Assembly (NCBI GenBank): GCA_026224975.1
Contig: JAMFRW010000348.1
Location: 1 to 63,158, forward strand
Direction of reading: 5' to 3'
Origin: Rhodoferax sp.
GTDB lineage: Bacteria; Pseudomonadota; Gammaproteobacteria; Burkholderiales; Burkholderiaceae_C
Length of the DNA stretch: 63,158 bases
The position numbers and the translations under genes are program-made. Below, one piece after another: positions 2,344 to 42,615 of this stretch. Each line of letters opens with the position of its first letter. Positions within the stretch are counted from its first letter, which is position 1. The notes beneath the pieces are model-generated. The model was not told the DNA's origin. It made no database searches and saw only the letters and a list, made by a program, of their open reading frames with translations.

Positions 2344-5300
2344 ATGTCGCGACGCCAACGATCTTCAAGCACCGCCAGCCGCCCGCCCGATGACGCAATC
2401 GTCGGCCTGTTGCGGGTCGATGCCACCTGGGCGATCCTCGTGGCGAACGAGGCTTTCGCCGACATCGTCCAGCGGCCAACCGAGGCCCTGGTCGGGCTGA
2501 ATCTGCTGACGCTCACGCAGGTGGACGAGTCAACCGATGAACAAGCCGCGCGGCTCAACGAGCTTCTGTCCGGCGAGCGCGAGAGCTTCCGCCAGGAGAT
2601 GCGCTACGCCCTGCCCGATGGCAACCACACCTGGGTCGATGTGGCGGCGTCGGCAGTGCGGGATGCGAACGGCGTCTTGCTGGAAGTGGTGCTGATGGTG
2701 TTCGACATCGACCAGCGCAAGAGCGAAGAGGCCAAGCTGCTGCAACGCCATGGTCTGGCGCTGCAGGTCGCCGGCCTCGGCACCTGGCAATGGTGGGTGC
2801 AGGACGGGCGGGCGCAATTCGACATCTTCTGGGCGATGACGGTCGGGTATGCGGTGACGGAGCTGGCGCCGAGCATCGAAACCTGGCGGTCGCTCATGCA
2901 CCCGGACGACATCGCGGGCGCCGAGGCGAGCGTCGTGCCTTGCCTCCACGGCGATGCCCCGCAGGCCATCCATGAGCACCGGCTTCGGCATCGCGATGGG
3001 CATTGGGTCTGGCTGCTGCAGAACGGTGTTGTCATCGAGCGCGACAGCAAGGGGCGACCGTGGCTCATGCTGGGCACCTCGCAAGACATCACGCAGCGCA
3101 AGATGGCCGAGGCTGCGCTCGAACAAAGTCGGCAGCGGCAGGCGCTGGCGCTCCAGGCCGCCCAGCTGGGCCAATACGATTGGAACGTCGAACTGGACGA
3201 GATGACCTTCGACCAGCGCTTTGCCGACATCGTCGGCTACGAGGTGGGCGAACTCCCGCGCGACCGCTCGGTCTGGCCAATGCTCGACCACCCCGACGAT
3301 GTGGCGCGCATCCATGTCGAGCTGATGGATCATCTCGAAGGGCGGACCGAAAGCTATCGCATCGAGTACCGGATGATCCACAAGCGCGGTCACATCGTGT
3401 GGGTGCACGCGACCGGCATGGTCGTCGAGCGCGACGGGCAGGGGCGCCCGCTGCGCGTGGTGGGCCTCAACAACGATGTGACCGAGCAGAAGAAGGCCGA
3501 AGAGGAACTGCGTGCCGCGATGGCTTCGGCCGAATCGGCCAATCGCGCCAAGAGCCAGTTCCTCGCGAACATGAGCCACGAGATCCGCACGCCGATGAAC
3601 GCGATGATCGGTCTCACGCACCTGGTGCTCGACACCGAGCTCGCCCCGCGCCAGCGCGAACTTCTGCAAAAGGTTTATGGCGCTTCGAAGTCGCTGCTGA
3701 CGATCCTGAACGATGTGCTCGACTACTCGAAGATCGAGGCGGGTCGCATGGCGGTCGAGCATGTGCAGTTTGCGCTGGAAGAACCGCTGAACAATGTGTC
3801 GAACCTGTTCGGCGCGGAAGTCGAACACAAGGGGCTGGAGCTGTTTTTCGAGGTCTCGCCGGGTGTGCCGCTCGAGGTCGTGGGCGATCCGCTGCGCCTC
3901 ACGCAGGTCATCAGCAACCTGATCGGCAACGCCATCAAGTTCACCGAGCGCGGCCAGATCCATCTGAAGGTCGAGGTGGTGGCGCGCGATGCCGAGCAGT
4001 TGACGCTGCGTTTCGCGATCACCGACACGGGCATCGGCATGTCGGAGGAGCAACTCGGGCGCCTCTTCCAGGCTTTCACGCAGGCCGACAACTCGGTGAC
4101 GCGCAAGTACGGCGGCACCGGCCTGGGCTTGACGATCAGCCAGCAGCTGGTGGGCCTCATGGGTGGCAGGCTGGGCGTGAGCAGCGCATTCGGCGGCGGC
4201 TGCACCTTCACTTTCACGGTGCGCGTGGGCGCGGTCGACTCGCCGAACTGCAGTCTGGACCTGCACCGCCTCAAGGGTTTGCGGACCCTGGTCGTCGACG
4301 ACCAGGAAACATCGCGCGCCATCCTGCAGGACCTGCTGGAGGCCTGGGGGCTGGAGGTGGAGACGGCGAGCAGCGCCGCCGAGGGCTTGCAGTGCATCGA
4401 CAGGCGCAAGGCGGCGGAGCCGTTCGATGTGGTGCTGCTCGATTGGCGCATGCCGGAGATGAGCGGGCTGGAGATGGCCCGCGTGCTGCGCGAGCAGGCA
4501 CCCGAGGGCGGCCCGCCGTTCGCCATCATGGTCACCGCCCATGGGCGCGAGCAGTTGATCCAGGAAGCGGGAGACCTTGCGCTCGATGTCGTGCTGACCA
4601 AACCGGTAGTGCCTTCGCACCTGTTCGACATCCTGATGCGGCTGCGGCATGGCGACGCGGCGCCCGTCGGCGTGCGGGCCGGCAGCCAGCGTGCGCCGAT
4701 GCGGCGGTTCGATGGCGCGCGCGTGCTGCTGGTCGAGGACAACCTGCTGAACCAACAGGTCGCCTCGGGCTTTCTGGAAGGCCTGGGCGTGACGGTGACG
4801 ATCGCCTGCCACGGCGGTGAAGCCGTGCAACTCGCCGAGGCCGGCCACTTCGATATGGTGTTGATGGACCTGCACATGCCGGTGATGGACGGGCTCGAAG
4901 CCACACGCCGGCTGAAGGCCTCGCCGCGCGAGCTGCCGATCGTCGCCATGACGGCGGCGGTGCTCAGCGAGGACCGGCAGCGTTGCGAGGCCGCGGGCAT
5001 GTGCGGCTTCCTCGCCAAGCCGGTCGATCCCGACGAACTGGTGCGCATGCTGTGCCGCTGGCTGCCGAGCCAGGCGGTGTGTAGAGGATCCGCTGCCGGT
5101 GCTCGACGCGGTGGCCGCGTCGCCGCTGCCGGCCATCACCGGCTTCGATGCACAAAGCGCCCTGCGCCGCCTGCATGGCGACCAGGATCGCCTGATCTAT
5201 CTGCTGCGTTCTTTCGCGAGCCAGTACCGCGCCTTGTCGTGCAGCTTGACAGCGCTGCTGGCGGAGAGCGGGTGTGAGGAGGCGCTGCTGCAGTTGCACA

Positions 5301-5752
5301 CGCTGAAGGGCACGGCGGCGACGCTGGGCCTGAGCGATCTGTCGGCCCGGCCCGCGGCGCTCGAAGCCCGGGTGCGCGCCGCCGATGGCCCGGTGGGCTG
5401 CGAGTCGCTCGCCCGCAGCCTGGAGGAGGCCATCGCCGCCATCGACAGGCTGGAAGCAGAAGCACTCGACGACGTGCCGCAGCCAGGCTTGTCGGCTTCG
5501 GCCGCGCAGCCGACGGGTGGCCAGGACCTGACGCAGTTCATCGACCGGACACGCCGCTATCTGCTGGAACAGGAGCTGATGCCGGAAGAGCTCATGGAGG
5601 AATTGAAGCAACTCGCTGCACACGCCGCGCCGGGCAGCCCGCTGCACTCGCTGCGCCAGCACATCCTCGATTTCGACCACGAAGCTGCGCTGGGCGATGT
5701 CGATGCACTCGCCCTTGCCCTGACCATCGACTTTGGAATCTTCGATCTATGA
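2344..5752 (+). pseudogene. Hybrid sensor kinase (3xPAS-HisKA-HATPase-REC-REC-Hpt) split by a frameshift near 5077-5082
   Basis: [15 protein letters not shown]-box, GGTGLGL G-box and two REC domains in frame 2344-5277. The Hpt motif LHTLKGTAATLG is in another frame (5099-5752). Could be a sequencing error. Confidence 0.8.
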
Positions 5753-7914
5753 CCGCACCGACGACCCCCGCTTCGCGCAAGCCGCTGATCCTGGTGGTGG
5801 ACGACGTGCCGGCGAACCTGCATGTGATCGCCTCCGCGCTGCGCGACGACTACCGCATCAAGACCGCCACCAACGGCCCCGGTGCGCTCGCGCTGGCCTC
5901 GCGCGTCGACGATCGGCCGGACCTGATCCTGCTCGATGTGATGATGCCGATGATGAGCGGCCACGATGTGCTGCGCGAGCTACGCGATGGTCCGGAGACG
6001 CGCGACATACCGGTCATCTTCGTGACTGCCGACACTTCCGAAGACAACGAGATCCGCGGCCTCGGACTCGGTGCTTGCGACTTCCTGCCCAAGCCGATCA
6101 ATGTGCGGGTGTTGCGGGCCCGCGTGCGCAACCTGCTGCAAAGGCAATCGCTGCAGCGCATGCTGCAACTCAACGAGCTCAAGCTGCGCGCCATGCTCGA
6201 CAGCAGCATGCAGTTCATCGCGCTACTCGACACCAACGGCCTTGTTCTGCATGTCAACCGACAGGTGCGCGAACTGCTGGCCCGGCCACTCGAGGCCGTG
6301 CTGGAGCAGCCGTTCTGGAAACTGCCGCTCTGGAGCGATTTCACCGCCCAACAGGATGACGTGCGCCATGCCGTTGAGCGCGCGGCGCGCGGCGTGGCGA
6401 GCCGCTTCGAGACGCTTTATGCCGATGGCGCCGACGAGGGCGTCGTGCTGGATTTTTCTTTGCATCCGGTGCGCGGTACGACCGGCCAGGTGACTTTCCT
6501 GCTGGCCGAAGCCACCGACATGACGCGCCAGCGCACCGCCGAGAACAACATCCGCCACCTTGCCAACAACGACCCGTTGACCGGCCTGCCCAACCGGATC
6601 CTGCTCAGCGACCGCGTGAACCAGGCGATACGGCTGGCCGAGCGGCACAAGACCTCGTTTGCGCTGATGTTTCTCGACCTCGACCGCTTCAAGCACATCA
6701 ACGACACGCTCGGCCATGCCCACGGCGACAAGCTGCTGATCGAGATGGGCCGGCGGCTGGCCGGCGCGGTGCGCCTGCCGGACACGGTGGCGCGCATCGG
6801 CGGCGATGAATTCGTGCTGCTGCTGCCCGATACACCGGCGGCCGGTGCCATCACCGTGGCCGAGAAACTCCTGTCACGGACCGTCGAACCCTGCACGGTG
6901 GAGATGCACAAGCTGGCGGTCACGGCCTCGATCGGCATCGCGATGTACCCGGACGACGGCCGCGACTTCGAAACCCTCTCCAAGTGTGCCGACACAGCCA
7001 TGTACCGCGCCAAGCGGGAGGGGCGCAACGGCTATCGCTTCTTCACCCAGGAAATGCACGAGCGCTCGGCCAGGCTCCTGCACCTGGAGTCGCTGCTGCG
7101 GCACGCTGCCGAGCGAGGCGAGCTGCATCTGCACTATCAGCCGCAAATCGATCTGGAGAGCGGCCTGTGCGTCGGCGCGGAGGCCTTGCTGCGCTGGACC
7201 AGCCCGGAACTCGGCGAGGTATCGCCAGGGGAGATGATCCCGGTCGCCGAGGAGACCGGCCTCATCCTGCAGATCGGCGAATGGGTCTTGCGCACGGCCT
7301 GCCGCCAGGCGAGGGCGTGGATGGACGCGGGTTTCTCGCTGCAGACGGTGGCCGTCAACGTCTCGTCCCTGCAGCTTCGCCAGCGCGACTTCCAGGACGC
7401 CGTGACGCGCTGCCTCGAAGACACCGGGGTCCCGGCGGAACGGCTCGAACTGGAGATCACCGAAAGTGCGGCCTTCGGCAACCTCAACCTGGCATCCACC
7501 ATGCTCGATCCGCTGCACGACCGCGGTGTGCGGCTTTCGCTCGACGACTTCGGCACTGGCTATTCGTCGCTGAGCTATCTGCGGCGCATCCACATCGACA
7601 AGTTGAAGATCGACCAATCCTTCGTGCGTGAACTGACGCGCGGACCCGAAGACCAGGCCCTGATCGCCGCGATGGTCAACATGGCGCGAACGCTGAAGCT
7701 GCGCACCGTGGCCGAGGGCGTCGAAACCCGCGAGCAGCTCGAAGCCCTGCGTGCGCTCGGCTGTGACGAGGTGCAGGGCTATCACCTCGGCCGGCCGATG
7801 GCGGCCGAGCGTTTCGAAGCCTGGATGACCGAGCGGAAGGCGAGCGGAAGGCATGCGCCTCGGCTGATGGGCGCGTGCGCAGGTGCGACGAGGCTGCTAC
7901 CGGCGATCGGCTGA
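5749..7914 (+). CDS. REC-PAS-GGDEF-EAL response regulator (diguanylate cyclase/phosphodiesterase)
   Basis: REC ILVVDD...LLDVMMP; intact GGDEF; EAL with DDFGTGYSS; ATGA overlap with the Hpt frame stop. Confidence 0.95.
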   Translation: MTAPTTPASRKPLILVVDDVPANLHVIASALRDDYRIKTATNGPGALALASRVDDRPDLILLDVMMPMMSGHDVLRELRDGPETRDIPVIFVTADTSEDNEIRGLGLGACDFLPKPINVRVLRARVRNLLQRQSLQRMLQLNELKLRAMLDSSMQFIALLDTNGLVLHVNRQVRELLARPLEAVLEQPFWKLPLWSDFTAQQDDVRHAVERAARGVASRFETLYADGADEGVVLDFSLHPVRGTTGQVTFLLAEATDMTRQRTAENNIRHLANNDPLTGLPNRILLSDRVNQAIRLAERHKTSFALMFLDLDRFKHINDTLGHAHGDKLLIEMGRRLAGAVRLPDTVARIGGDEFVLLLPDTPAAGAITVAEKLLSRTVEPCTVEMHKLAVTASIGIAMYPDDGRDFETLSKCADTAMYRAKREGRNGYRFFTQEMHERSARLLHLESLLRHAAERGELHLHYQPQIDLESGLCVGAEALLRWTSPELGEVSPGEMIPVAEETGLILQIGEWVLRTACRQARAWMDAGFSLQTVAVNVSSLQLRQRDFQDAVTRCLEDTGVPAERLELEITESAAFGNLNLASTMLDPLHDRGVRLSLDDFGTGYSSLSYLRRIHIDKLKIDQSFVRELTRGPEDQALIAAMVNMARTLKLRTVAEGVETREQLEALRALGCDEVQGYHLGRPMAAERFEAWMTERKASGRHAPRLMGACAGATRLLPAIG

Positions 7915-12207: not shown

Positions 12208-13080
12208 ATGCTCACGGAAACCCAGCTCTCGAAGGTCATGCCCAACCTGGCACAAGCCAAGCTCGCGCTGTACCTGCCGCCGCTCAACAAGGCGATGCAG
12301 GACCGCAGCGTCAACACCATGCTGCGCACCGCGGCCTTCATCGCGCAGTTGGCGCATGAGTCGGGCGAGTTCCGTTTCATGGAAGAGCTGTGGGGGCCGA
12401 CGCCGGCGCAGGTGCGCTACGAGCCGCCGTCGGACCTGGCCACGCGCCTGGGCAATACGCAGCCAGGCGACGGCAAACGCTTCAAGGGACGCGGCCCGAT
12501 CCAGATCACCGGGCGCTTCAACTACCAGAAGTACGGCGGCCTGCTCGGCATCGACCTCTGCGCCAACCCGCCCCTGGCCGCCACGCCCGAGGTGGCGTTC
12601 GCGACGGCGGGCCTGTTCTGGGAGAAGAACGGCCTCAACGAACTGGCCGACACGGAAGATTTCGTCACCATCACCAAGCGCATCAACGGCGGCACCAACG
12701 GCTTGCCCGACCGGCAGATGTACTACGCGAGGGCCAAGGCAGTGCTGGCCGATGGCTTCGAGGCTGGGCCGGCGGCGGCGGTGACACGCGGTGCCGCCCG
12801 GGTGGCACCGGCCGCATCGGGCGAACCGCTGGCGCGGGGCTTCGAGGCGCTGGTGGAATTGGGCGCGGTGCCGGCGCCCGTCGCAGCGAAGAAGGTGGCG
12901 GCCAAGAAAGCAGTGCCCAAGCCAGCCGCGGCGAAGGAGGCCGTTGCGACCAGGAAGGCTGCAGCCAAGAAGGTTGCGGCTAAGAAGGTCGTCGCCAAAA
13001 AGACCTCGGCCGAGAAAGCACCCGCGAAGAAGGCCACTGCGAAGAAGGCACCTGTTAAAAAGGCGGCCGCCCGGAAGTGA
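12208..13080 (+). CDS. Glycoside hydrolase family 19 (lysozyme/chitinase) with Lys/Ala-rich H1-like tail
   Basis: AAFIAQLAHESG, FKGRGPIQITGRFNY, TKRINGGTNGL; tail of AKK repeats; AAGGAG SD. Confidence 0.9.
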   Translation: MLTETQLSKVMPNLAQAKLALYLPPLNKAMQDRSVNTMLRTAAFIAQLAHESGEFRFMEELWGPTPAQVRYEPPSDLATRLGNTQPGDGKRFKGRGPIQITGRFNYQKYGGLLGIDLCANPPLAATPEVAFATAGLFWEKNGLNELADTEDFVTITKRINGGTNGLPDRQMYYARAKAVLADGFEAGPAAAVTRGAARVAPAASGEPLARGFEALVELGAVPAPVAAKKVAAKKAVPKPAAAKEAVATRKAAAKKVAAKKVVAKKTSAEKAPAKKATAKKAPVKKAAARK

Positions 13081-13963: not shown

Positions 13964-16447
13964 GTGACGATGAGCCTGCCTGTGTCGGTGCTGCCGCGAA
14001 CCGTGCCGCGAGAGCGTGAAGCCTTGCTGCTGTCGGGCCTGCTGCGGTCTGCGCGGCTGACGCTGCTGTGCGGCGAAGCGGGTGCTGGCAAGAGCGTGCT
14101 GCTCGAATCGGGCGTGATGCCCCTGCTGCATCGCCGCACCACCGACCAAGCCGTGCCGCCCGGCCTCTCGCCGCGCGTCGTGATCCCCTTCCCCGAGCGC
14201 CGAAGCCGCGTGGCGGGTGGTGCCGGCCGCAGTCCGGAAGTCGCGATCCTGATGTCCGACTGGTCCGGCGAACCGCTGGTGCGGCTGCAGGCGCAGTTGC
14301 ACGAAGCGCTGGCCATCGCCGTGCCGCAGCAACAGGCCACGCGCGTGTCGCTGGCCGGCACGATCAGTGCGCTCAACATGCAGTTCGGCGCCCGCTTCAT
14401 CGTGCTGCTCGACCGCTTCGACGATTGCCTCGCGGCGGCTGCGCAAGACGAGCACGGCGGTGCGCGCGCCTTCCTCGAAGAATTCATGATCGCGGTGGAT
14501 CGGCCGCTGTTGCCGGCGAACTTCTTGATCGCCGTTCGGAGCGATGCGGATCCGCTGCTGGACCCTCTGCGCGTGCGGCTGCCGGGGTTCGGGGATCAGA
14601 CCTTGCGGTTGTCTCGCTTGCCTGCGACGCGCGTGGCGGGGCCTTCGTTGAGGCAGGTGCCGAAAGGAGCGGTTCCGGCAGCGGGATCGGCTGAGGGCGC
14701 TGGTGTGATGGCGGGCGCCGCGGCGGCTGCGGCAGGGGTGCTCGAAGGCAGCGCGCCCGCAGATGCCAAGGCGCCTCGTGCTGTGGCATGGCAGAGCGAG
14801 GAGGATTGGTTTGCGTCGCTGAACGCGGTCGTGTTGAAGGCGGCTGAGGCGGCGCGGTTGGATGTGACGGGGGAAGCGGTGGCTCCGAAAGCGCCCACGC
14901 CAGGCGCTAATACCGCACCTTCGTCTGCGGAGGTGATACCTCCATCAGCCGCGGTCGAAGTAGAGCCTGAGGCGCGCTCCGTGGCCCCTCACCCCGGCCC
15001 TCTCCCCAAAGGGGCGAGGGAGGATCACCCGCGCGCCGCGGATGCGGTACCTCAGCCTCAGGTGGCGGACAGCGGTCGGCATCGAACGATGGTCGAGCTG
15101 GCCGCAAGCGGCTTGGCGTTCTCGCCCCGCTTGACCCCCGCAACGCGCGCCGCGGAGTCCACCGAGCAGGTGCGTGCCGCTGCTTTGCCCCCTCCCCCCC
15201 TGGGAGAGGGCTGGGATGAGGGCCAGCGGCAGACCGAAACCACACCGCTTCCGAAAGCGCCCAAGCGTCGGCCAACCGCCGCCCTCCCACGCTCACTCGC
15301 CTGGATCGGTGTCCCGGCCGGACTGGCGTTGATCGCCTGGCTGGCGTGGCCAAGTAGTTCGCCGACCAGCACGACGCAAGTTGCTCAAGTGCCGACACCC
15401 GCGCTGCTGCCACCTTCCGTCGTCACGTTAGGCAAGCCCGATGCGCCGGTCGCTACCGTGCCTGCGGCGCCGTCGCCGACACCCCAGGCAACCTCGATCC
15501 CAACGCCAGCACCAGCACCAGCACCAGCACCAGCACCAGCGTCTGTTGCGACCCCGACCGCGGCCAACGATATCGACGACCCAGCCAGTTCAATCGCTGC
15601 GATCGAACTCGCCCGTGCCCTCGCCCCAACCAACGGCGCGACCCAGCCAAACGGCGGCGCAACACCGCCCGCCAACGCCCCCGCAACACCCACCTGGCCC
15701 GCCGGCTTCACGCCCCTCCCGAACCGCACCGGCTTCGCCCTGGCCCGCTACGACGCGCTCCAGGCCGCACGGCAAGCCATGCTTGGCAACGCGCTGCAAG
15801 TCGTTGCCCCGCTCTACACCGAGGACGTGCTCTTCGTCGCGCACGCCGGTTCGCCGCTCACCTTCATCCACGACATTCGCCATGCGCGCATCAACGTCGG
15901 CCCCGCGCAGGGCGCGCGGGCGGTGACGGCGGGCGCGGTGTACCAGCGCTTCTTCGGCTCCGCGCTGCCCACTGCCTCGGCTGACACGCGCGGCGCCGAG
16001 GCCGTACTCGGCGCACTGGCCAGCGGCAAGTCCGCCGATGTGATGGTCGTGGCCGGTCCGCAAGCGGCGGCCTGGTGGGCAGCCTTGCCGCCCGAGACGG
16101 CGCGCTCGCTCAAGTTGCTGAAGATCGATCGCGCCGACCCGGCCGACCGCAGCGCTTTGCAGACCTTCCTGCCCGCGACGGTGCGCTCGGGCGCAGACGC
16201 CGGAACGCCGACCCTGGCGGTGATGACCTTCCTCGTGGCCGTCGGCACGCCTGATGCGACATCGCAAGTCGCCCCGGCCGTTCGTTCGCTGTGCAGCGCG
16301 TTGCCCGCCCTGCAGCGCGACGGGAGCCCGAAGTGGCGCGAGTTCCAGCCGGGGCTGCAGCTCGAAACCGGCTGGCCGAACGCGCGTGCGGCCGCGGCGT
16401 TGCGGGCCTGCGCGACGCTGGTGGCCGTGGCGGGCGGCAAGCGCTGA
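13964..16447 (+). CDS. STAND-like P-loop NTPase - linker - TM helix - TAXI-like solute-binding domain fusion
   Basis: Walker A LLCGEAGAGKS, Walker B FIVLLDRFDD; TM LAWIGVPAGLALIAWLAW; TAXI-like VVAPLYTEDVLFVA...INVGPAQG...PKWRE. Confidence 0.7.
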   Translation: MTMSLPVSVLPRTVPREREALLLSGLLRSARLTLLCGEAGAGKSVLLESGVMPLLHRRTTDQAVPPGLSPRVVIPFPERRSRVAGGAGRSPEVAILMSDWSGEPLVRLQAQLHEALAIAVPQQQATRVSLAGTISALNMQFGARFIVLLDRFDDCLAAAAQDEHGGARAFLEEFMIAVDRPLLPANFLIAVRSDADPLLDPLRVRLPGFGDQTLRLSRLPATRVAGPSLRQVPKGAVPAAGSAEGAGVMAGAAAAAAGVLEGSAPADAKAPRAVAWQSEEDWFASLNAVVLKAAEAARLDVTGEAVAPKAPTPGANTAPSSAEVIPPSAAVEVEPEARSVAPHPGPLPKGAREDHPRAADAVPQPQVADSGRHRTMVELAASGLAFSPRLTPATRAAESTEQVRAAALPPPPLGEGWDEGQRQTETTPLPKAPKRRPTAALPRSLAWIGVPAGLALIAWLAWPSSSPTSTTQVAQVPTPALLPPSVVTLGKPDAPVATVPAAPSPTPQATSIPTPAPAPAPAPAPASVATPTAANDIDDPASSIAAIELARALAPTNGATQPNGGATPPANAPATPTWPAGFTPLPNRTGFALARYDALQAARQAMLGNALQVVAPLYTEDVLFVAHAGSPLTFIHDIRHARINVGPAQGARAVTAGAVYQRFFGSALPTASADTRGAEAVLGALASGKSADVMVVAGPQAAAWWAALPPETARSLKLLKIDRADPADRSALQTFLPATVRSGADAGTPTLAVMTFLVAVGTPDATSQVAPAVRSLCSALPALQRDGSPKWREFQPGLQLETGWPNARAAAALRACATLVAVAGGKR
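14983..15224. repeat. Inverted pair of REP-like palindromic units embedded in-frame in the CDS
   Basis: GGCCCCTCACCCCGGCCCTCTCCCCAAAGGGGCGAGGG (14983-15020); reverse complement of 15188-15224 reads GGCCCTCATCCCAGCCCTCTCCCAGGGGGGGAGGGGG. Confidence 0.75.
15506..15541 (+). repeat. Hexamer tandem repeat (CCAGCA)x5 + CCAGCG encoding (Pro-Ala)6
   Basis: Read directly from sequence. Confidence 0.9.
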
Positions 16448-16539
16448 ACGGCTGGCGGTCTTCTCTCCCACGGATCCGGTGCATCGATCACCTCGAACCT
16501 CGCGTCGAACCCCTCTGTCACCCACCCACAACCCAGGAG

Positions 16540-17070
16540 ATGTCGATGAAAACAAGCCGTTTCGATCAATCGTCCGCGTCCGGAACCAGCGCGTCGGTGC
16601 GCCACCAAAACGCATCCCGCGCCCGCACGTCGACCGCCGCGAAGCTTATCGCCGGTGCCGCTGCCACGCTGCTCGCCGCCAATACCACCTTCGCCGCCGA
16701 CGCCCCGGTGCAAAAGGTCGTCGTGCGCTCGGTCGCCTACTTCGATTTCGACCAGGCCAGCATCCGCCCGCAGGATCAGGCGAAGATCCTGGCCGAGGTC
16801 GGCAAGATGCAGGGCGTGACGTGGCAGACGGTCACCGCCACCGGCCACACCGACAGCATCGGCCCGGCGGCGTACAACGAGAAGCTTTCGGAAGAGCGCG
16901 CGGCGTCGGTCAAGACCTATCTTGTCGGCAAGGGGCTGGACCCGGCGATGATCAATACCGCCGCCAAGGCCGCTGCCGCGCCGCTGGCGAAGAACGGCTC
17001 CGCCCGCGGCCGCGCCAAGAACCGGCGCGCCGAGATCGAGTTCCAGGGCGTGCGTGCGGTGCAGCCTTGA
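16540..17070 (+). CDS. Exported OmpA-C (peptidoglycan-binding) domain protein
   Basis: Signal peptide; YFDFDQASI, GHTDSIG..YNEKLSEERA, NRRAEI; AGGAG SD. Confidence 0.92.
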   Translation: MSMKTSRFDQSSASGTSASVRHQNASRARTSTAAKLIAGAAATLLAANTTFAADAPVQKVVVRSVAYFDFDQASIRPQDQAKILAEVGKMQGVTWQTVTATGHTDSIGPAAYNEKLSEERAASVKTYLVGKGLDPAMINTAAKAAAAPLAKNGSARGRAKNRRAEIEFQGVRAVQP

Positions 17071-39460: not shown

Positions 39461-40717
39461 TCAACTGCAAGGCACGATCTTGAACTCCACCCGCCGATCC
39501 AGCGCATCCACCACGTTGTCGGTGCTGCTGCCGACGATGTTCTGCCTGAATCCCATGCCGGTCGCTTGCGTGCGCGGGCCGAGCACGGCGGCTTCGACGG
39601 TGAGGCGTTGGCGGATGAAGTTGGCGCGTTGCAGCGAGAGCGCTTCGTTGGTCTGTTCGGAGCCGGTGCGGCTGGTGTGGCCGACGATGTTCATGCAGGC
39701 CTTGGCGGCGTTGGCGCCGCGGGCGATCTGGCGCAGCCACATCGGGTAGGCGCCGCTGACCTTGGGGTCGGACCAGAACGTCGTCGTGCCGGGGTTGAAC
39801 AGGAACTTCACGCCCAGCTCGTTGTAGGCGATGCCGAGTGCCACGACCTTGCCGAAGGCTTCTTCGGCTTCGGCGCTGCGGCCGAGCTTGACGTTGCTGA
39901 GGTAGATGCCGTTGAGCACGCGAAGCTGCTCGCCGTTCGGGTCGCTCTGGGCGTTGCGGTACTGGCCGAGGGCATCCTGATACCGCTCGGCGTTGTAGAG
40001 CGTGGTCGCGTCGTTGATGGTGGTCGCGACGGCCACGCGTTCCAGGTAGAACTTGTCGGCCGGCGTGCCCGGCTTGGCCGACGAGGTGCGCACATAACCT
40101 TCGGTGACCTTGTCCTTGACGAGCACCGGGCTGTCGCGGTAGTAGGGCAGCGGCGTGTGGTCCAGGCCCTCGGTGCGGCTGAGGGCGGTGGCTTGCGCGA
40201 CGACGTTGCCGGTCTTGAGTTCGGTCAGCGCGAGGTTGATGCGGCGCACCGGGTCGGGCCGGTCGGAGAGCACCAGGGTCATGGTGCCCGTCAACAGATA
40301 CTGCGCCTTGGCGAGGTTGGCCGACTGGAACGGCAGGATCTCGATGGCCAGATCGGCCTGGCCGGTGAGGCGCGTGCTAACGCGTGACTGCAGCAACTGC
40401 GTGGCGGCGGTTTGCTGGCCGGTGCTGGCATCGAGCATGGGGTCGAGCACGAAGGTCTTCTTCGACAGCTTGCCGAGGAAGGCCGGGCCTTGGCGGGTTT
40501 GCTGCGCGAGGCCGTCGGTCGCGAGCGCCACGGCTTGCTCGAAAGGCAATTCGTTGGCGACGACCGTGGCCTTGGGCGGCTCGGCGCAGCCGGTGAGGGC
40601 GAGCATCGTCACGGCGGACGACGCGGCGAACAGGCCGAACGAGAGGGCCGACACCGATACGGCAGATGCGAGCGTGCGGCGGCTCGGGGTGGCGTTGAGC
40701 GAGGCGGTTGAAATCAT
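39461..40717 (-). CDS. Lipoprotein with TPR-like region and C-terminal OmpA domain
   Basis: Lipobox LTGC; VGHTSRTG...LSLQRA...DRRVEF; ATGA overlap with the kinase stop. Confidence 0.88.
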   Translation of the reverse strand: MISTASLNATPSRRTLASAVSVSALSFGLFAASSAVTMLALTGCAEPPKATVVANELPFEQAVALATDGLAQQTRQGPAFLGKLSKKTFVLDPMLDASTGQQTAATQLLQSRVSTRLTGQADLAIEILPFQSANLAKAQYLLTGTMTLVLSDRPDPVRRINLALTELKTGNVVAQATALSRTEGLDHTPLPYYRDSPVLVKDKVTEGYVRTSSAKPGTPADKFYLERVAVATTINDATTLYNAERYQDALGQYRNAQSDPNGEQLRVLNGIYLSNVKLGRSAEAEEAFGKVVALGIAYNELGVKFLFNPGTTTFWSDPKVSGAYPMWLRQIARGANAAKACMNIVGHTSRTGSEQTNEALSLQRANFIRQRLTVEAAVLGPRTQATGMGFRQNIVGSSTDNVVDALDRRVEFKIVPCS

Positions 40718-42615
40718 CGGCATTCCCTTCGCAAAAAAGCGGCCTCGCTCGCGGTCAAGGGTTCGAGGGAGGCCTTTTGCAGAATATCACTGCACTGTGA
40801 TCGGGTGGCCGAGGTGTCGGGCTTGGGCGCGGTCTCGGCGGGGCGGGACGTGGGCTCGCGCCTGGGCTTGGCGGTGGATACGGCGGAAGATGCAGGTGCG
40901 CGCGGTGCGGGGACGGAAGCGGCCTGCGATGCGGGTTGCGGCGCGCTGGGCGCGGGAGTTGTGGGAGACGCAGCGGGTGACGGCGTTGGCGCCGTGACGG
41001 GCGGCGCTGTCGGCACCGGCGTCGTGACCGTTGTGGGTGCTGCGGCGGAAGCTGGCGCGGCAGACGCTGCGGATGAAGCCGGCCGCGCCGCATCGGGCAA
41101 GGCCGACGGCGCGCGCCGGGTGAGCACGTAGAGGAACGCGCCGATCAATGCAGCCGCTGCGAGTGAAGCCACGATGGCGAGGGGCGCCTTGCGCGAGCGT
41201 GAAGCGACTGGCGTCGATGGGGAGGTGGGCGCGGGTGGCGGCGCTTCTACCGGCGGTGGCGACCAGGCCGGCGTCTGCGCGGCTACGGACGGCGCTTGTG
41301 CGATGGGACTGGGCTCTGCCGTGAGGCCCGCTGGTGAGTCGGCGGCCGGTACGACGACAGGCGGCGCAACCAGCGGGGCCGCTGGCAGAGCAGCGGGCGG
41401 TGCCGCAGGCAGCAAAGCGCTAATCGGCGCTTGCGTTGGCACCGCTTCCGGCACCGTCACCGGCGCGGGAGCCGATGCCGGCGACGTGGCCTGAAACCGC
41501 GCCGTGGCCGGCCGAACGATCGTCGTGCCGAGCATCGACGAATCCGGCGCGAAGGTCACCCCCGCCCCCGGCACGGGCGGCGGCAGCGTCACCTGAGGCG
41601 GTGACCACATCCCCGGCGGCAGCGTCGCCTGGAAACCCTCCGGATCGAGCGCCGACGAGGCCGTCTCCGCAAACCCGACCGCAGGCGGCGCCGACGAGCT
41701 TCGCCCATCGAGCAGATCGCGAAACTCCGCCACGCTTTGTGGCCGGTCCTGTGGGCGCACCGAAAGCGCCTTGTCGATCGCGTGCAGAAACGGCTCGCTG
41801 TACAGCCCGCTCGCGGCGGTGTTCAGCGGCTCCAGCGCATCGGCCATGAGCCGCTCCACCGACGACATCGGCGGCTTGCCCTGGATCGCGAAGTAGACGA
41901 CGCAGGCCAGCGCGTAGAGGTCGGTCCAGGCGCCCTGCGCCATGGTGGCCACATCGCCGTATTGCTCGATGGGTGCATAGCCGGGCTTGAGCACGACGGT
42001 GAGCGCGTGCGTCATGTCGCCGATGACGCGGCGGGCGGCGCCGAAGTCGAGCAGCAGCGGGCCGGTGGCGGTGAGCAGGATGTTGTCGGGCGCAATGTCG
42101 CGGTGGTAGCAGCGCGCGGCGTGCATCACCGCCAGTGCATCGAGCAGCGGGCGCAGCCAGGCACGCAGCTCGGCTTCGCTCGCCGGCCGGCCCATCTGCG
42201 CGAGCGCGTGCTTGAGCGTGGGCCCTTCGTAGTACGGCATCGCCATGTAGGCCGTGCCGTTCTCTTCCCAGAAGCGGTAGACCTTGACGAGCGACGGGTG
42301 GTCGAAGCGCGCCAGCAGCCGCGCCTCGTTGACGAAGCTGCGCAGGCCGGCGCCGAAGGTCTCGAGGTGCCGCTCCGACTTGACGATGACCGTGAGCGAC
42401 GCCACCGCGCGCGAGGCCATCGACGACGGCATGTATTCCTTGATCGCCACGCGCCGCAGCAGCGAATGGTCGTAGGCCAGGTAGACGACGCCGAAGCCGC
42501 CTTCGCCGATCAGCCCGGTGATCTCGAAATCGCGCAGCCGCGTGCCGACAGGCAGCGTGTGAGATGACGCCGGCGACGCCGGATGGGCCGGGGGTGGCGG
42601 GCCTGCCGCGTTCAC
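40714..42615 (-). CDS. Membrane-anchored Hanks-type Ser/Thr protein kinase
   Basis: GEGGFGVVY, VAIKEY, HRDIAPDN, DFG, GYAPIEQ, DLYAL; Pro-rich linker, TM helix, C-terminal 2-Cys motif. Confidence 0.95.
   Translation of the reverse strand: MNAAGPPPPAHPASPASSHTLPVGTRLRDFEITGLIGEGGFGVVYLAYDHSLLRRVAIKEYMPSSMASRAVASLTVIVKSERHLETFGAGLRSFVNEARLLARFDHPSLVKVYRFWEENGTAYMAMPYYEGPTLKHALAQMGRPASEAELRAWLRPLLDALAVMHAARCYHRDIAPDNILLTATGPLLLDFGAARRVIGDMTHALTVVLKPGYAPIEQYGDVATMAQGAWTDLYALACVVYFAIQGKPPMSSVERLMADALEPLNTAASGLYSEPFLHAIDKALSVRPQDRPQSVAEFRDLLDGRSSSAPPAVGFAETASSALDPEGFQATLPPGMWSPPQVTLPPPVPGAGVTFAPDSSMLGTTIVRPATARFQATSPASAPAPVTVPEAVPTQAPISALLPAAPPAALPAAPLVAPPVVVPAADSPAGLTAEPSPIAQAPSVAAQTPAWSPPPVEAPPPAPTSPSTPVASRSRKAPLAIVASLAAAALIGAFLYVLTRRAPSALPDAARPASSAASAAPASAAAPTTVTTPVPTAPPVTAPTPSPAASPTTPAPSAPQPASQAASVPAPRAPASSAVSTAKPRREPTSRPAETAPKPDTSATRSQCSDILQKASLEPLTASEAAFLRRECR

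Follow-up and report, generated by a model that had tools for sequence, protein, structure and literature searches.

What can a single polypeptide do that carries the nucleotide-binding core of a STAND NTPase at one end and the fold of a transporter's binding protein at the other? The question is raised by a gene at positions 13964..16447 (+) of a 63,158-nucleotide stretch of Rhodoferax sp. DNA (contig JAMFRW010000348.1 of assembly GCA_026224975.1), hereafter the window, and by the gene that follows it, which encodes a protein with an OmpA C-terminal (OmpA-C) domain. A preliminary description of this pair proposed a one-component sensor, in which a transport receptor of the TAXI type would bind a ligand outside the cell and signal inwards to a STAND NTPase switch. 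Here we find that the domain calls behind that proposal are sound, as are the lack of a TRAP membrane subunit and the association with OmpA, and that the reading of the protein as a STAND sensor is weak. We suggest instead, with moderate confidence, that the protein is a trans-envelope tether, in which the TAXI fold and the OmpA-C protein would hold peptidoglycan and the cytoplasmic core would be a regulatory docking domain, likely controlled by a ligand through an arginine-rich insert.

A recurring fusion that ends in a remodelled TAXI fold

The open reading frame (ORF) runs without an internal stop across 827 aa and encodes a single-pass inner-membrane protein. Its start codon is either the GTG at 13964 or the ATG at 13970, and the closest homologue, P0003, which is full-length and shares 69% identity across 97%, starts at the equivalent of the ATG. 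The chain comprises, in this order and all on the (+) strand, an nSTAND1-like P-loop core (residues about 12-221; 13997..14626), a Pro/Ala-rich disordered cytoplasmic linker (residues 222-443; 14627..15292), one transmembrane (TM) helix (residues 444-462; 15293..15349), a Pro/Ala/Thr-rich periplasmic stalk that contains a short hexanucleotide repeat (residues 463-532; 15350..15559) and the TAXI-fold domain (residues 533-823; 15560..16432). An AlphaFold2 model based on a 63-sequence alignment gave high confidence (predicted local distance difference test, pLDDT) at about 12-61, 88-221 and 536-823 and disorder at 465-535 and at 222-443, the latter interrupted by a helix at 279-302; an earlier model from nine sequences gave the same picture. 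The long disordered linker and the single TM helix of the preliminary description are thereby borne out, the hydrophobic 19-mer at 444-462 being the sole clear TM segment. Because basic residues sit N-terminal of this helix its predicted orientation is N-in, C-out, and lysine and arginine are richer before it than after it in 49/60 fusions, with eight ties. The linker helix 279-302, which on visual inspection seemed conserved, was dropped as evidence, its profile matching 6/60 fusions and 50/90 other homologues, and not the window protein.

The fusion is a genuine, recurring and uncharacterised module. A profile of seven N-domains defined a family set, the best 150 of 183 clusters at E<=1e-30, and as 60 of these 150 homologues join the N-domain, TM helix and TAXI domain in a single chain, an assembly artefact can be dismissed. 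Of the remainder, 66 have no TM helix, many of them being fragments or belonging to a clade of soluble proteins; in another 20 a TM helix is present without a TAXI match, and four are canonical nSTAND1 proteins. The contigs of one public run also cover both halves, though they break at a short tandem repeat near 15493-15549; since the run is possibly the source sample, it gives no independent support. The fusion is carried by 5/35 genomes of the genus (the 35 include G042, which has no family match) and the N-domain by 13/401 genomes of the family, while three other matches among 401 genomes of the order are fuller nSTAND1-TM proteins. A literature search found no paper on the fusion architecture, which the supplements of nSTAND1 papers may nevertheless list. 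We found no sigma-70 promoter-like site, and terminator-like matches were at chance level (3 vs 2.8).

The assignment of the periplasmic domain rests on its fold. The four best structural matches of the window model are all TAXI binding proteins (Z 17.5-19.2), led by 8s4j (Z 19.2, root-mean-square deviation 3.4, 252 residues aligned), and a structure search with P0086 in the ESM Atlas returned TAXI clusters only. The Pfam profile NMT1_3/TAXI (PF16868) matches residues 610-759 with a score of 22.6 bits and so falls short of the cut-off of 27, which several homologues do pass; a pair of cysteines (777/816) is conserved. The nearest relative of the domain is a standalone TAXI-like protein of the same genome (G000 C160; 37% identity) that keeps the canonical motifs, and through this paralogue the positions of 63 fusions were aligned to VcGluP. 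The ligand contacts of VcGluP are set out in PMC11574862; Y45 and Q93 are the protein's main glutamate determinants. The equivalent of Y45 is variably D, A or E in the fusions, that of S75 is lost, and those of Q93 and D157 have become R595 (45/63) and R652 (47/63); the equivalent of E125 is kept as E620 in 55/63. Thus the fused domain shares its fold and the E125 equivalent with the TAXI-TRAP binding proteins VcGluP (8S4J) and TtGluBP (1US4/1US5) and with BP0403 of the TAXI-GltS type, but has replaced the equivalents of Y45, S75, Q93 and D157, and sits behind a TM helix without a transporter nearby. As both main determinants are replaced, glutamate binding cannot be assumed. The cleft of the window protein presents R595, D597, E620 and R652, and its pair of arginines might either hold a different anion or shut the cleft by salt bridges.

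These observations bear on two explanations other than the tether. The first is the outside-in sensor, in which the TAXI fold would bind a periplasmic, perhaps anionic ligand such as a cell-wall fragment and so cluster NTPase cores that recruit an unlinked effector. It is favoured by the high confidence with which both TAXI lobes are modelled, by the conservation of two arginines and two acidic residues at cleft positions, and by the absence of a membrane subunit: TIGR02123 has no match in the window and seven weak matches in the genome (87% complete), none of which reaches the cut-off, in keeping with what the preliminary description had noted. The loss of four of the VcGluP contacts speaks against it. 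The second explanation, that of a binding protein tethered to the membrane and supplying a transporter encoded elsewhere, has a precedent in the tethered, elongated TAXI proteins with non-TRAP transporters, as in TAXI-GltS, that PMC12344293 describes; yet no transporter gene is conserved beside the fusions in the loci examined, the canonical TAXI ligand residues are lost and TIGR02122 scores 11.6 bits against a cut-off of 84.35, so that we hold it to be highly improbable.

The nearest relatives of the fused domain form a TAXI subfamily that is likewise transporter-less and has intact ligand motifs (L013:6842-9452, which is G000 C160, with L018, L020, L021, L008 and L023). The gene before it encodes, in 6/7 loci, a zinc-ribbon (DZR)-linker-TM-linker protein, the zinc ribbon being visible in four. 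This protein ends in a CTxxVAALGLC-like motif, and those TAXI partners that are fully seen end in a similar ILGLC motif. As a true ligand sensor, the DZR-TM/TAXI pair is a stronger candidate than the fusion, and it is possibly from the DZR-linked subfamily that the fused domain was derived.

An OmpA-C protein dedicated to the TAXI-like gene

The gene downstream of the fusion (16546..17070, +) encodes a signal peptide without a lipobox, both read from the sequence, and a lone OmpA C-terminal domain (PF00691, 63.2 bits) with a W93-Q94 signature. When the search was made from the OmpA side, 15 loci formed a clade with a W-Q/R signature. A TAXI-like ORF lies directly upstream of the OmpA gene in 14/15 loci of this clade, and in 10/11 of those that were not seeds, but in 0/75 other OmpA loci, many of which are short; the 14 include L049, where only the last 30 positions of the TAXI profile fit on the contig. 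Thirteen of the 14 pairs have an ATGA stop-start overlap, in place of which the window pair has a gap of 98 nt. This clade of OmpA-C proteins is dedicated to the TAXI-like gene and translationally coupled to it, a stronger link than the adjacency that the preliminary description had pointed out. Residues equivalent to D103, R118, N159, R160 and R161 are invariant across 12 partner OmpAs, and the first two correspond to the conserved Asp and Arg that we take to bind peptidoglycan in OmpA-C domains. Moreover, three relatives (L045, L048 and L067) keep the TM helix, the TAXI domain and the OmpA partner without any ATPase domain, so that the periplasmic TAXI-OmpA pair is the constant core of the module.

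Some further arrangements were seen around such genes. At L050:2716-3738 a second gene for a fused-type TAXI domain converges on the OmpA gene from the opposite side. Long Ala/Glu/Arg-rich repeats, TolA-like by eye, lie on the cytoplasmic side of the TM helix in L048:1921-4878, L014:2111-4849, P0153 and P0110, in proteins with or without the ATPase core. The window also holds, at 39464-42615 (-), a Ser/Thr kinase with a Pro-rich linker and a TM helix followed by a probable lipoprotein of 418 aa with a divergent C-terminal OmpA domain; this second pair of a membrane protein and an OmpA-C protein lies 23 kb away and is not conserved beside homologues. Kinase neighbours, for which the preliminary description had advised a search across genomes, were not conserved in the loci examined.

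The stripped nSTAND1 core and its arginine-rich insert

The cytoplasmic core matches Pfam nSTAND1 (PF20703) at 29.2 bits (cut-off 27.1) over residues 16-195. The match covers profile positions 19-163, or 145/379, whereas a TIR-nSTAND1 control covers positions 1-376. Its structural matches are TnsC, Orc and Cdc6 (Z 13-14.5) and STAND proteins (Z 10-12), and hhalign aligned it to fuller nSTAND1 at a probability of 99.6 with 31% identity; profile score and fold matches together place it in the STAND/Cdc6-Orc P-loop clade, much as first described. By definition, however, the core of a STAND protein is followed by a helical and a winged-helix domain, which have a role in the switch. Neither follows the core here, the profile match ending at position 163 of 379 and the model being disordered from residue 222, and no effector, output domain or repeat-type sensor was found on the chain by Pfam scan or in the model. 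As only the nucleotide-binding core of nSTAND1 remains, the STAND-type switch of the preliminary description is absent. Compared with the nSTAND1 NTPases treated in PMC8195603, the family has no TIR or caspase effector and no WD40 sensor, loses Walker A frequently and has gained an arginine-rich insert of 24 residues.

The window protein itself has an intact Walker A (GEAGAGKS, residues 37-44; 14072..14095) and a Walker B of the form hhhhDxFD with D150 (hhhhDRFDD at residues 145-154; 14399..14422). Conservation of these motifs had been named beforehand as a refuting test of the sensor, and the outcome is divided: the DxxD/E of Walker B is present in 59/60 fusions, while Walker A is canonical in 41/60 and lost in 19/60. 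For a quick tree of 64 fusion rows the columns of Walker A and of the insert were removed, with short fragments left out and canonical multi-hit rows as outgroup only; on it the state of Walker A changes 14 times and that of the insert six times. The Walker A lysine is kept in 44/64 rows, and among the 66 proteins without a TM helix D or E stands before this lysine in 34 of the 65 scored.

Repeated loss of Walker A, the missing switch and output domains, the lost glutamate determinants, a core-to-TM linker that varies from 39 to 427 residues among fusions, and OmpA-paired relatives without an ATPase domain all weigh against outside-in ligand sensing as the best reading. Against these stands the intact Walker A of the window protein and of 41/60 fusions, and we consider a one-component sensor possible but unlikely. 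Less probable again, and in our view very unlikely, is that the protein is a degenerating piece of an anti-invader system, an nSTAND1 protein whose periplasmic binding domain would sense the invader. The nSTAND1 family was defined in conflict systems, in the account of PMC8195603, and TM and periplasmic-binding-protein domains are listed for the variable part of EACC1 systems in PMC7159879; the patchy distribution of the fusion (5/35 genus genomes) fits as well. Pfam scans of the examined fusions, however, showed no TIR, caspase or other effector, and among the loci read, for which a PADLOC scan was not made, no neighbour looked like a defence gene; strong conservation of the motifs and of the coupling to OmpA also makes decay unlikely.

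The best-conserved cytoplasmic feature of the fusions is the arginine-rich insert, RRxxD-x16-ERR in the window protein (residues 57-80; 14132..14203), which adds about 24 residues after the Walker A helix relative to a fuller nSTAND1 protein. Its loop is predicted to be disordered (pLDDT <50 at 62-87), and its ends are conserved, R57, R58, D61, [ED]78, R79 and R80 being retained in 59-62 of 64 rows (R57 in 60, R58 in 61, D61 in 60, R79 in 60 and R80 in 62). The pattern RRxxD-x(12-23)-[DE]RR is found in 55/60 fusions and in 62/90 other homologues, and is missing from the four canonical nSTAND1 proteins and from six SPOR-type proteins of the family. It is retained in 18/19 fusions that lack Walker A.

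What might such an insert bind? CleD, one of the Cle proteins of Caulobacter, which join a CheY domain to an arginine-rich region, binds dimeric cyclic di-GMP (c-di-GMP) through DRR-x11-(R/K)RxxD, and PMC7382256 describes a peptide that folds on binding with the RxxD on a helical turn. The insert carries both halves, the DRR as well as the (R/K)RxxD, and c-di-GMP may accordingly be its best candidate ligand, a proposal that we make tentatively from the sequence. The likeness is imperfect: compared with the Cle proteins the order is reversed, RRxxD coming first, the spacer is longer, mostly 15-18 residues (range 12-23) instead of 11, most family members have no flanking tyrosines, and the half-motifs lie in the predicted disordered loop of a P-loop domain that often loses Walker A.

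Searches for the motif elsewhere were negative. Similar patterns occur in 6/5216 predicted proteins of the source genome against a shuffled mean of 5.3, neither motif order rising above the shuffled background. Run against the 35 genus genomes, a profile built from the insert alone picked up no proteins but those of the family, all 12 next-best matches that were checked being off-frame noise, and it found nothing among solved structures; as it met family members only, the reversed motif could not be demonstrated on known c-di-GMP proteins. No paper on the reversed motif was found in a literature search. The source genome does encode one protein with an ERR...RRxxD tail, that is in the CleD order, which is chemoreceptor-like by eye (G000 C260:726-2606, 626 aa).

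Arginine-rich loops have many ligands, and the insert could instead bind nucleic acid, an anionic lipid or a partner protein, in which case the fusion would serve constitutively as a spatial landmark, for instance in division or for polar assemblies. The closest folds of the core, those of the DNA-binding ATPases TnsC, Orc and Cdc6, would suit such a role, as would the position of three soluble relatives (L022, L024 and L040) directly after minE. Two observations make us doubt this strongly. The invariant acidic residues in RxxD and [DE]RR fit both CleD half-motifs, whereas plain polyanion binding would need none; and among the nine soluble relatives examined, eight lie in exopolysaccharide/PEP-CTERM clusters (with prsK, prsT, a TIGR03013 glycosyltransferase and a TviB-like dehydrogenase), L055 being placed by its likeness to L054 and L022 ending at its contig. 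In these soluble paralogues (L017, L022, L024, L040, L052-L055 and L060), which are about 380-430 aa long, Walker A is deviant, the arginine-rich insert is present, a VYAxIExxL helix is conserved and an amphipathic-looking helix lies at the C-terminus. Exopolysaccharide production is under c-di-GMP control, and the context of the soluble relatives is to this extent suggestive, no more.

We have considered, with less confidence than the choice of ligand, that the insert defines a new class of c-di-GMP receptor, in which a permuted Cle-type peptide in a stripped STAND core would have replaced ATP as the switch. Within this betaproteobacterial group such a receptor would be deployed in two ways, namely as a soluble, catalytically dead protein of the exopolysaccharide/PEP-CTERM (floc) clusters, and as the cytoplasmic terminus of a trans-envelope tether that works from the inside out and is built with a repurposed TAXI receptor and OmpA-C. 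This wider reading, deployments included, is doubtful.

Relation to envelope ATPases and the proposed tether

The layout of the fusion most resembles that of GspA/ExeA, which with GspB/ExeB serves type II secretion in Aeromonas and Vibrio. As described in PMC9239104, GspA combines an AAA+ domain in the cytoplasm with one TM helix and a periplasmic region that binds the cell wall; it is encoded within the type II secretion cluster and is believed to assist the secretin in inserting through peptidoglycan. The order of ATPase, TM helix and periplasmic domain and the two-gene module are common to both. The fusion differs in that its core is a truncated nSTAND1 type and its periplasmic domain a TAXI fold without a PF01471 match in Pfam, that its neighbour is OmpA-C with no gspB partner, so that any binding to peptidoglycan would come in trans from this separate protein, and that no gsp or other secretion genes stand beside the fusion loci examined. 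By analogy the protein may work like an envelope ATPase of the ExeA/GspA type, even though it does not qualify as a GspA, a STAND switch or a TAXI-TRAP receptor.

The sister architectures seem to point in the same direction, to an envelope scaffold. Six of the 20 proteins with a TM helix and no TAXI match share a SPOR-like C-terminus in its place; Pfam SPOR scored 21.1 bits for P0124 (cut-off 21) and 14.2 bits for P0148, and the other four, without a match, were grouped by sequence likeness. Others end in short helical or Cys-rich domains. An ancestral status of the SPOR-type members was not supported, since they are nested among the TAXI fusions in the quick tree, the root of which is unsure. 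Two genomes of relatives have such genes among those of type II secretion: one for a fuller nSTAND1-TM-SPOR-like protein lies between gspH and gspI (L144, 5067-7562), and a similar nSTAND1-TM gene follows gspG/gspH where a contig ends (L145, 2952-4865). L146:4346-6268 encodes another fuller nSTAND1-TM-long linker-SPOR-like protein. It is possible that such proteins in gsp clusters are a non-orthologous equivalent of GspA.

According to the model that we favour, the single-pass protein would tether the envelope from the inner membrane, its TAXI-fold domain acting on a flexible stalk with the co-encoded OmpA-C protein to grip peptidoglycan. A physical contact between the TAXI domain and OmpA-C is presumed, as is the binding of OmpA-C to peptidoglycan, the latter from what is known of the family. 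The stripped core would be a regulatory docking domain, often catalytically dead, and neither a motor nor a STAND switch. The likeliest input would be cytoplasmic, a ligand at the arginine-rich insert with c-di-GMP as the best candidate, and control would therefore run from the inside out. Since the two linkers are disordered and long, and their length varies, any signal would probably pass by clustering or relocalisation rather than by a piston motion. The model takes its departure from the order and folds of the domains, the absence of the STAND switch domains and the recurrent disappearance of Walker A, the OmpA clade with its dedication and coupling, and the exchange of TAXI for SPOR-like or other domains in sister proteins.

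Several observations run counter to the model. Walker A and Walker B are intact in 41/60 and 59/60 fusions, so that many members may still bind ATP. The cleft is not merely eroded, as R595, E620 and R652 occupy positions of ligand contact and might accommodate an anionic ligand of a new kind, and the insert motif departs from that of CleD in order and spacing. Nor is the partner obligatory for a fusion: among the fusion loci that begin with the N-domain and have downstream sequence (n=8), OmpA lies beside six and is absent from G022 and G197; no OmpA of the partner clade was found in the genomes G197 (99% complete), G086 (97%), G022 (68%) and G201 (76%). Finally, in the loci examined no client, whether a secretion system or another, is conserved next to the fusions.

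OmpA apart, no conserved neighbour of the fusion was found in these loci, and the NUDIX and DUF4864 flanks of the window gene are common only to its close relative G048. Upstream the window holds a protein of glycoside hydrolase family 19 whose Lys/Ala-rich tail is histone H1-like (12208-13080, +). A PAS hybrid histidine kinase with a REC-PAS-GGDEF-EAL protein after it (2410-7914, +) lies 6 kb away, and these two are not conserved beside homologues.

Two familiar parts, a STAND core of the immune type and a transport receptor of the TAXI type, have been rebuilt into a transporter-less envelope module with a wall anchor of its own. Orphan proteins annotated as TAXI may cover other things than transport receptors, P0045 and P0086 being named simply TAXI subunits. 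If the insert binds c-di-GMP, it would be a new receptor motif, with the Cle order reversed, in more than 100 clusters at 50% identity, and would offer a candidate link between c-di-GMP and the exopolysaccharide/PEP-CTERM floc loci of this soil and wastewater group of bacteria.

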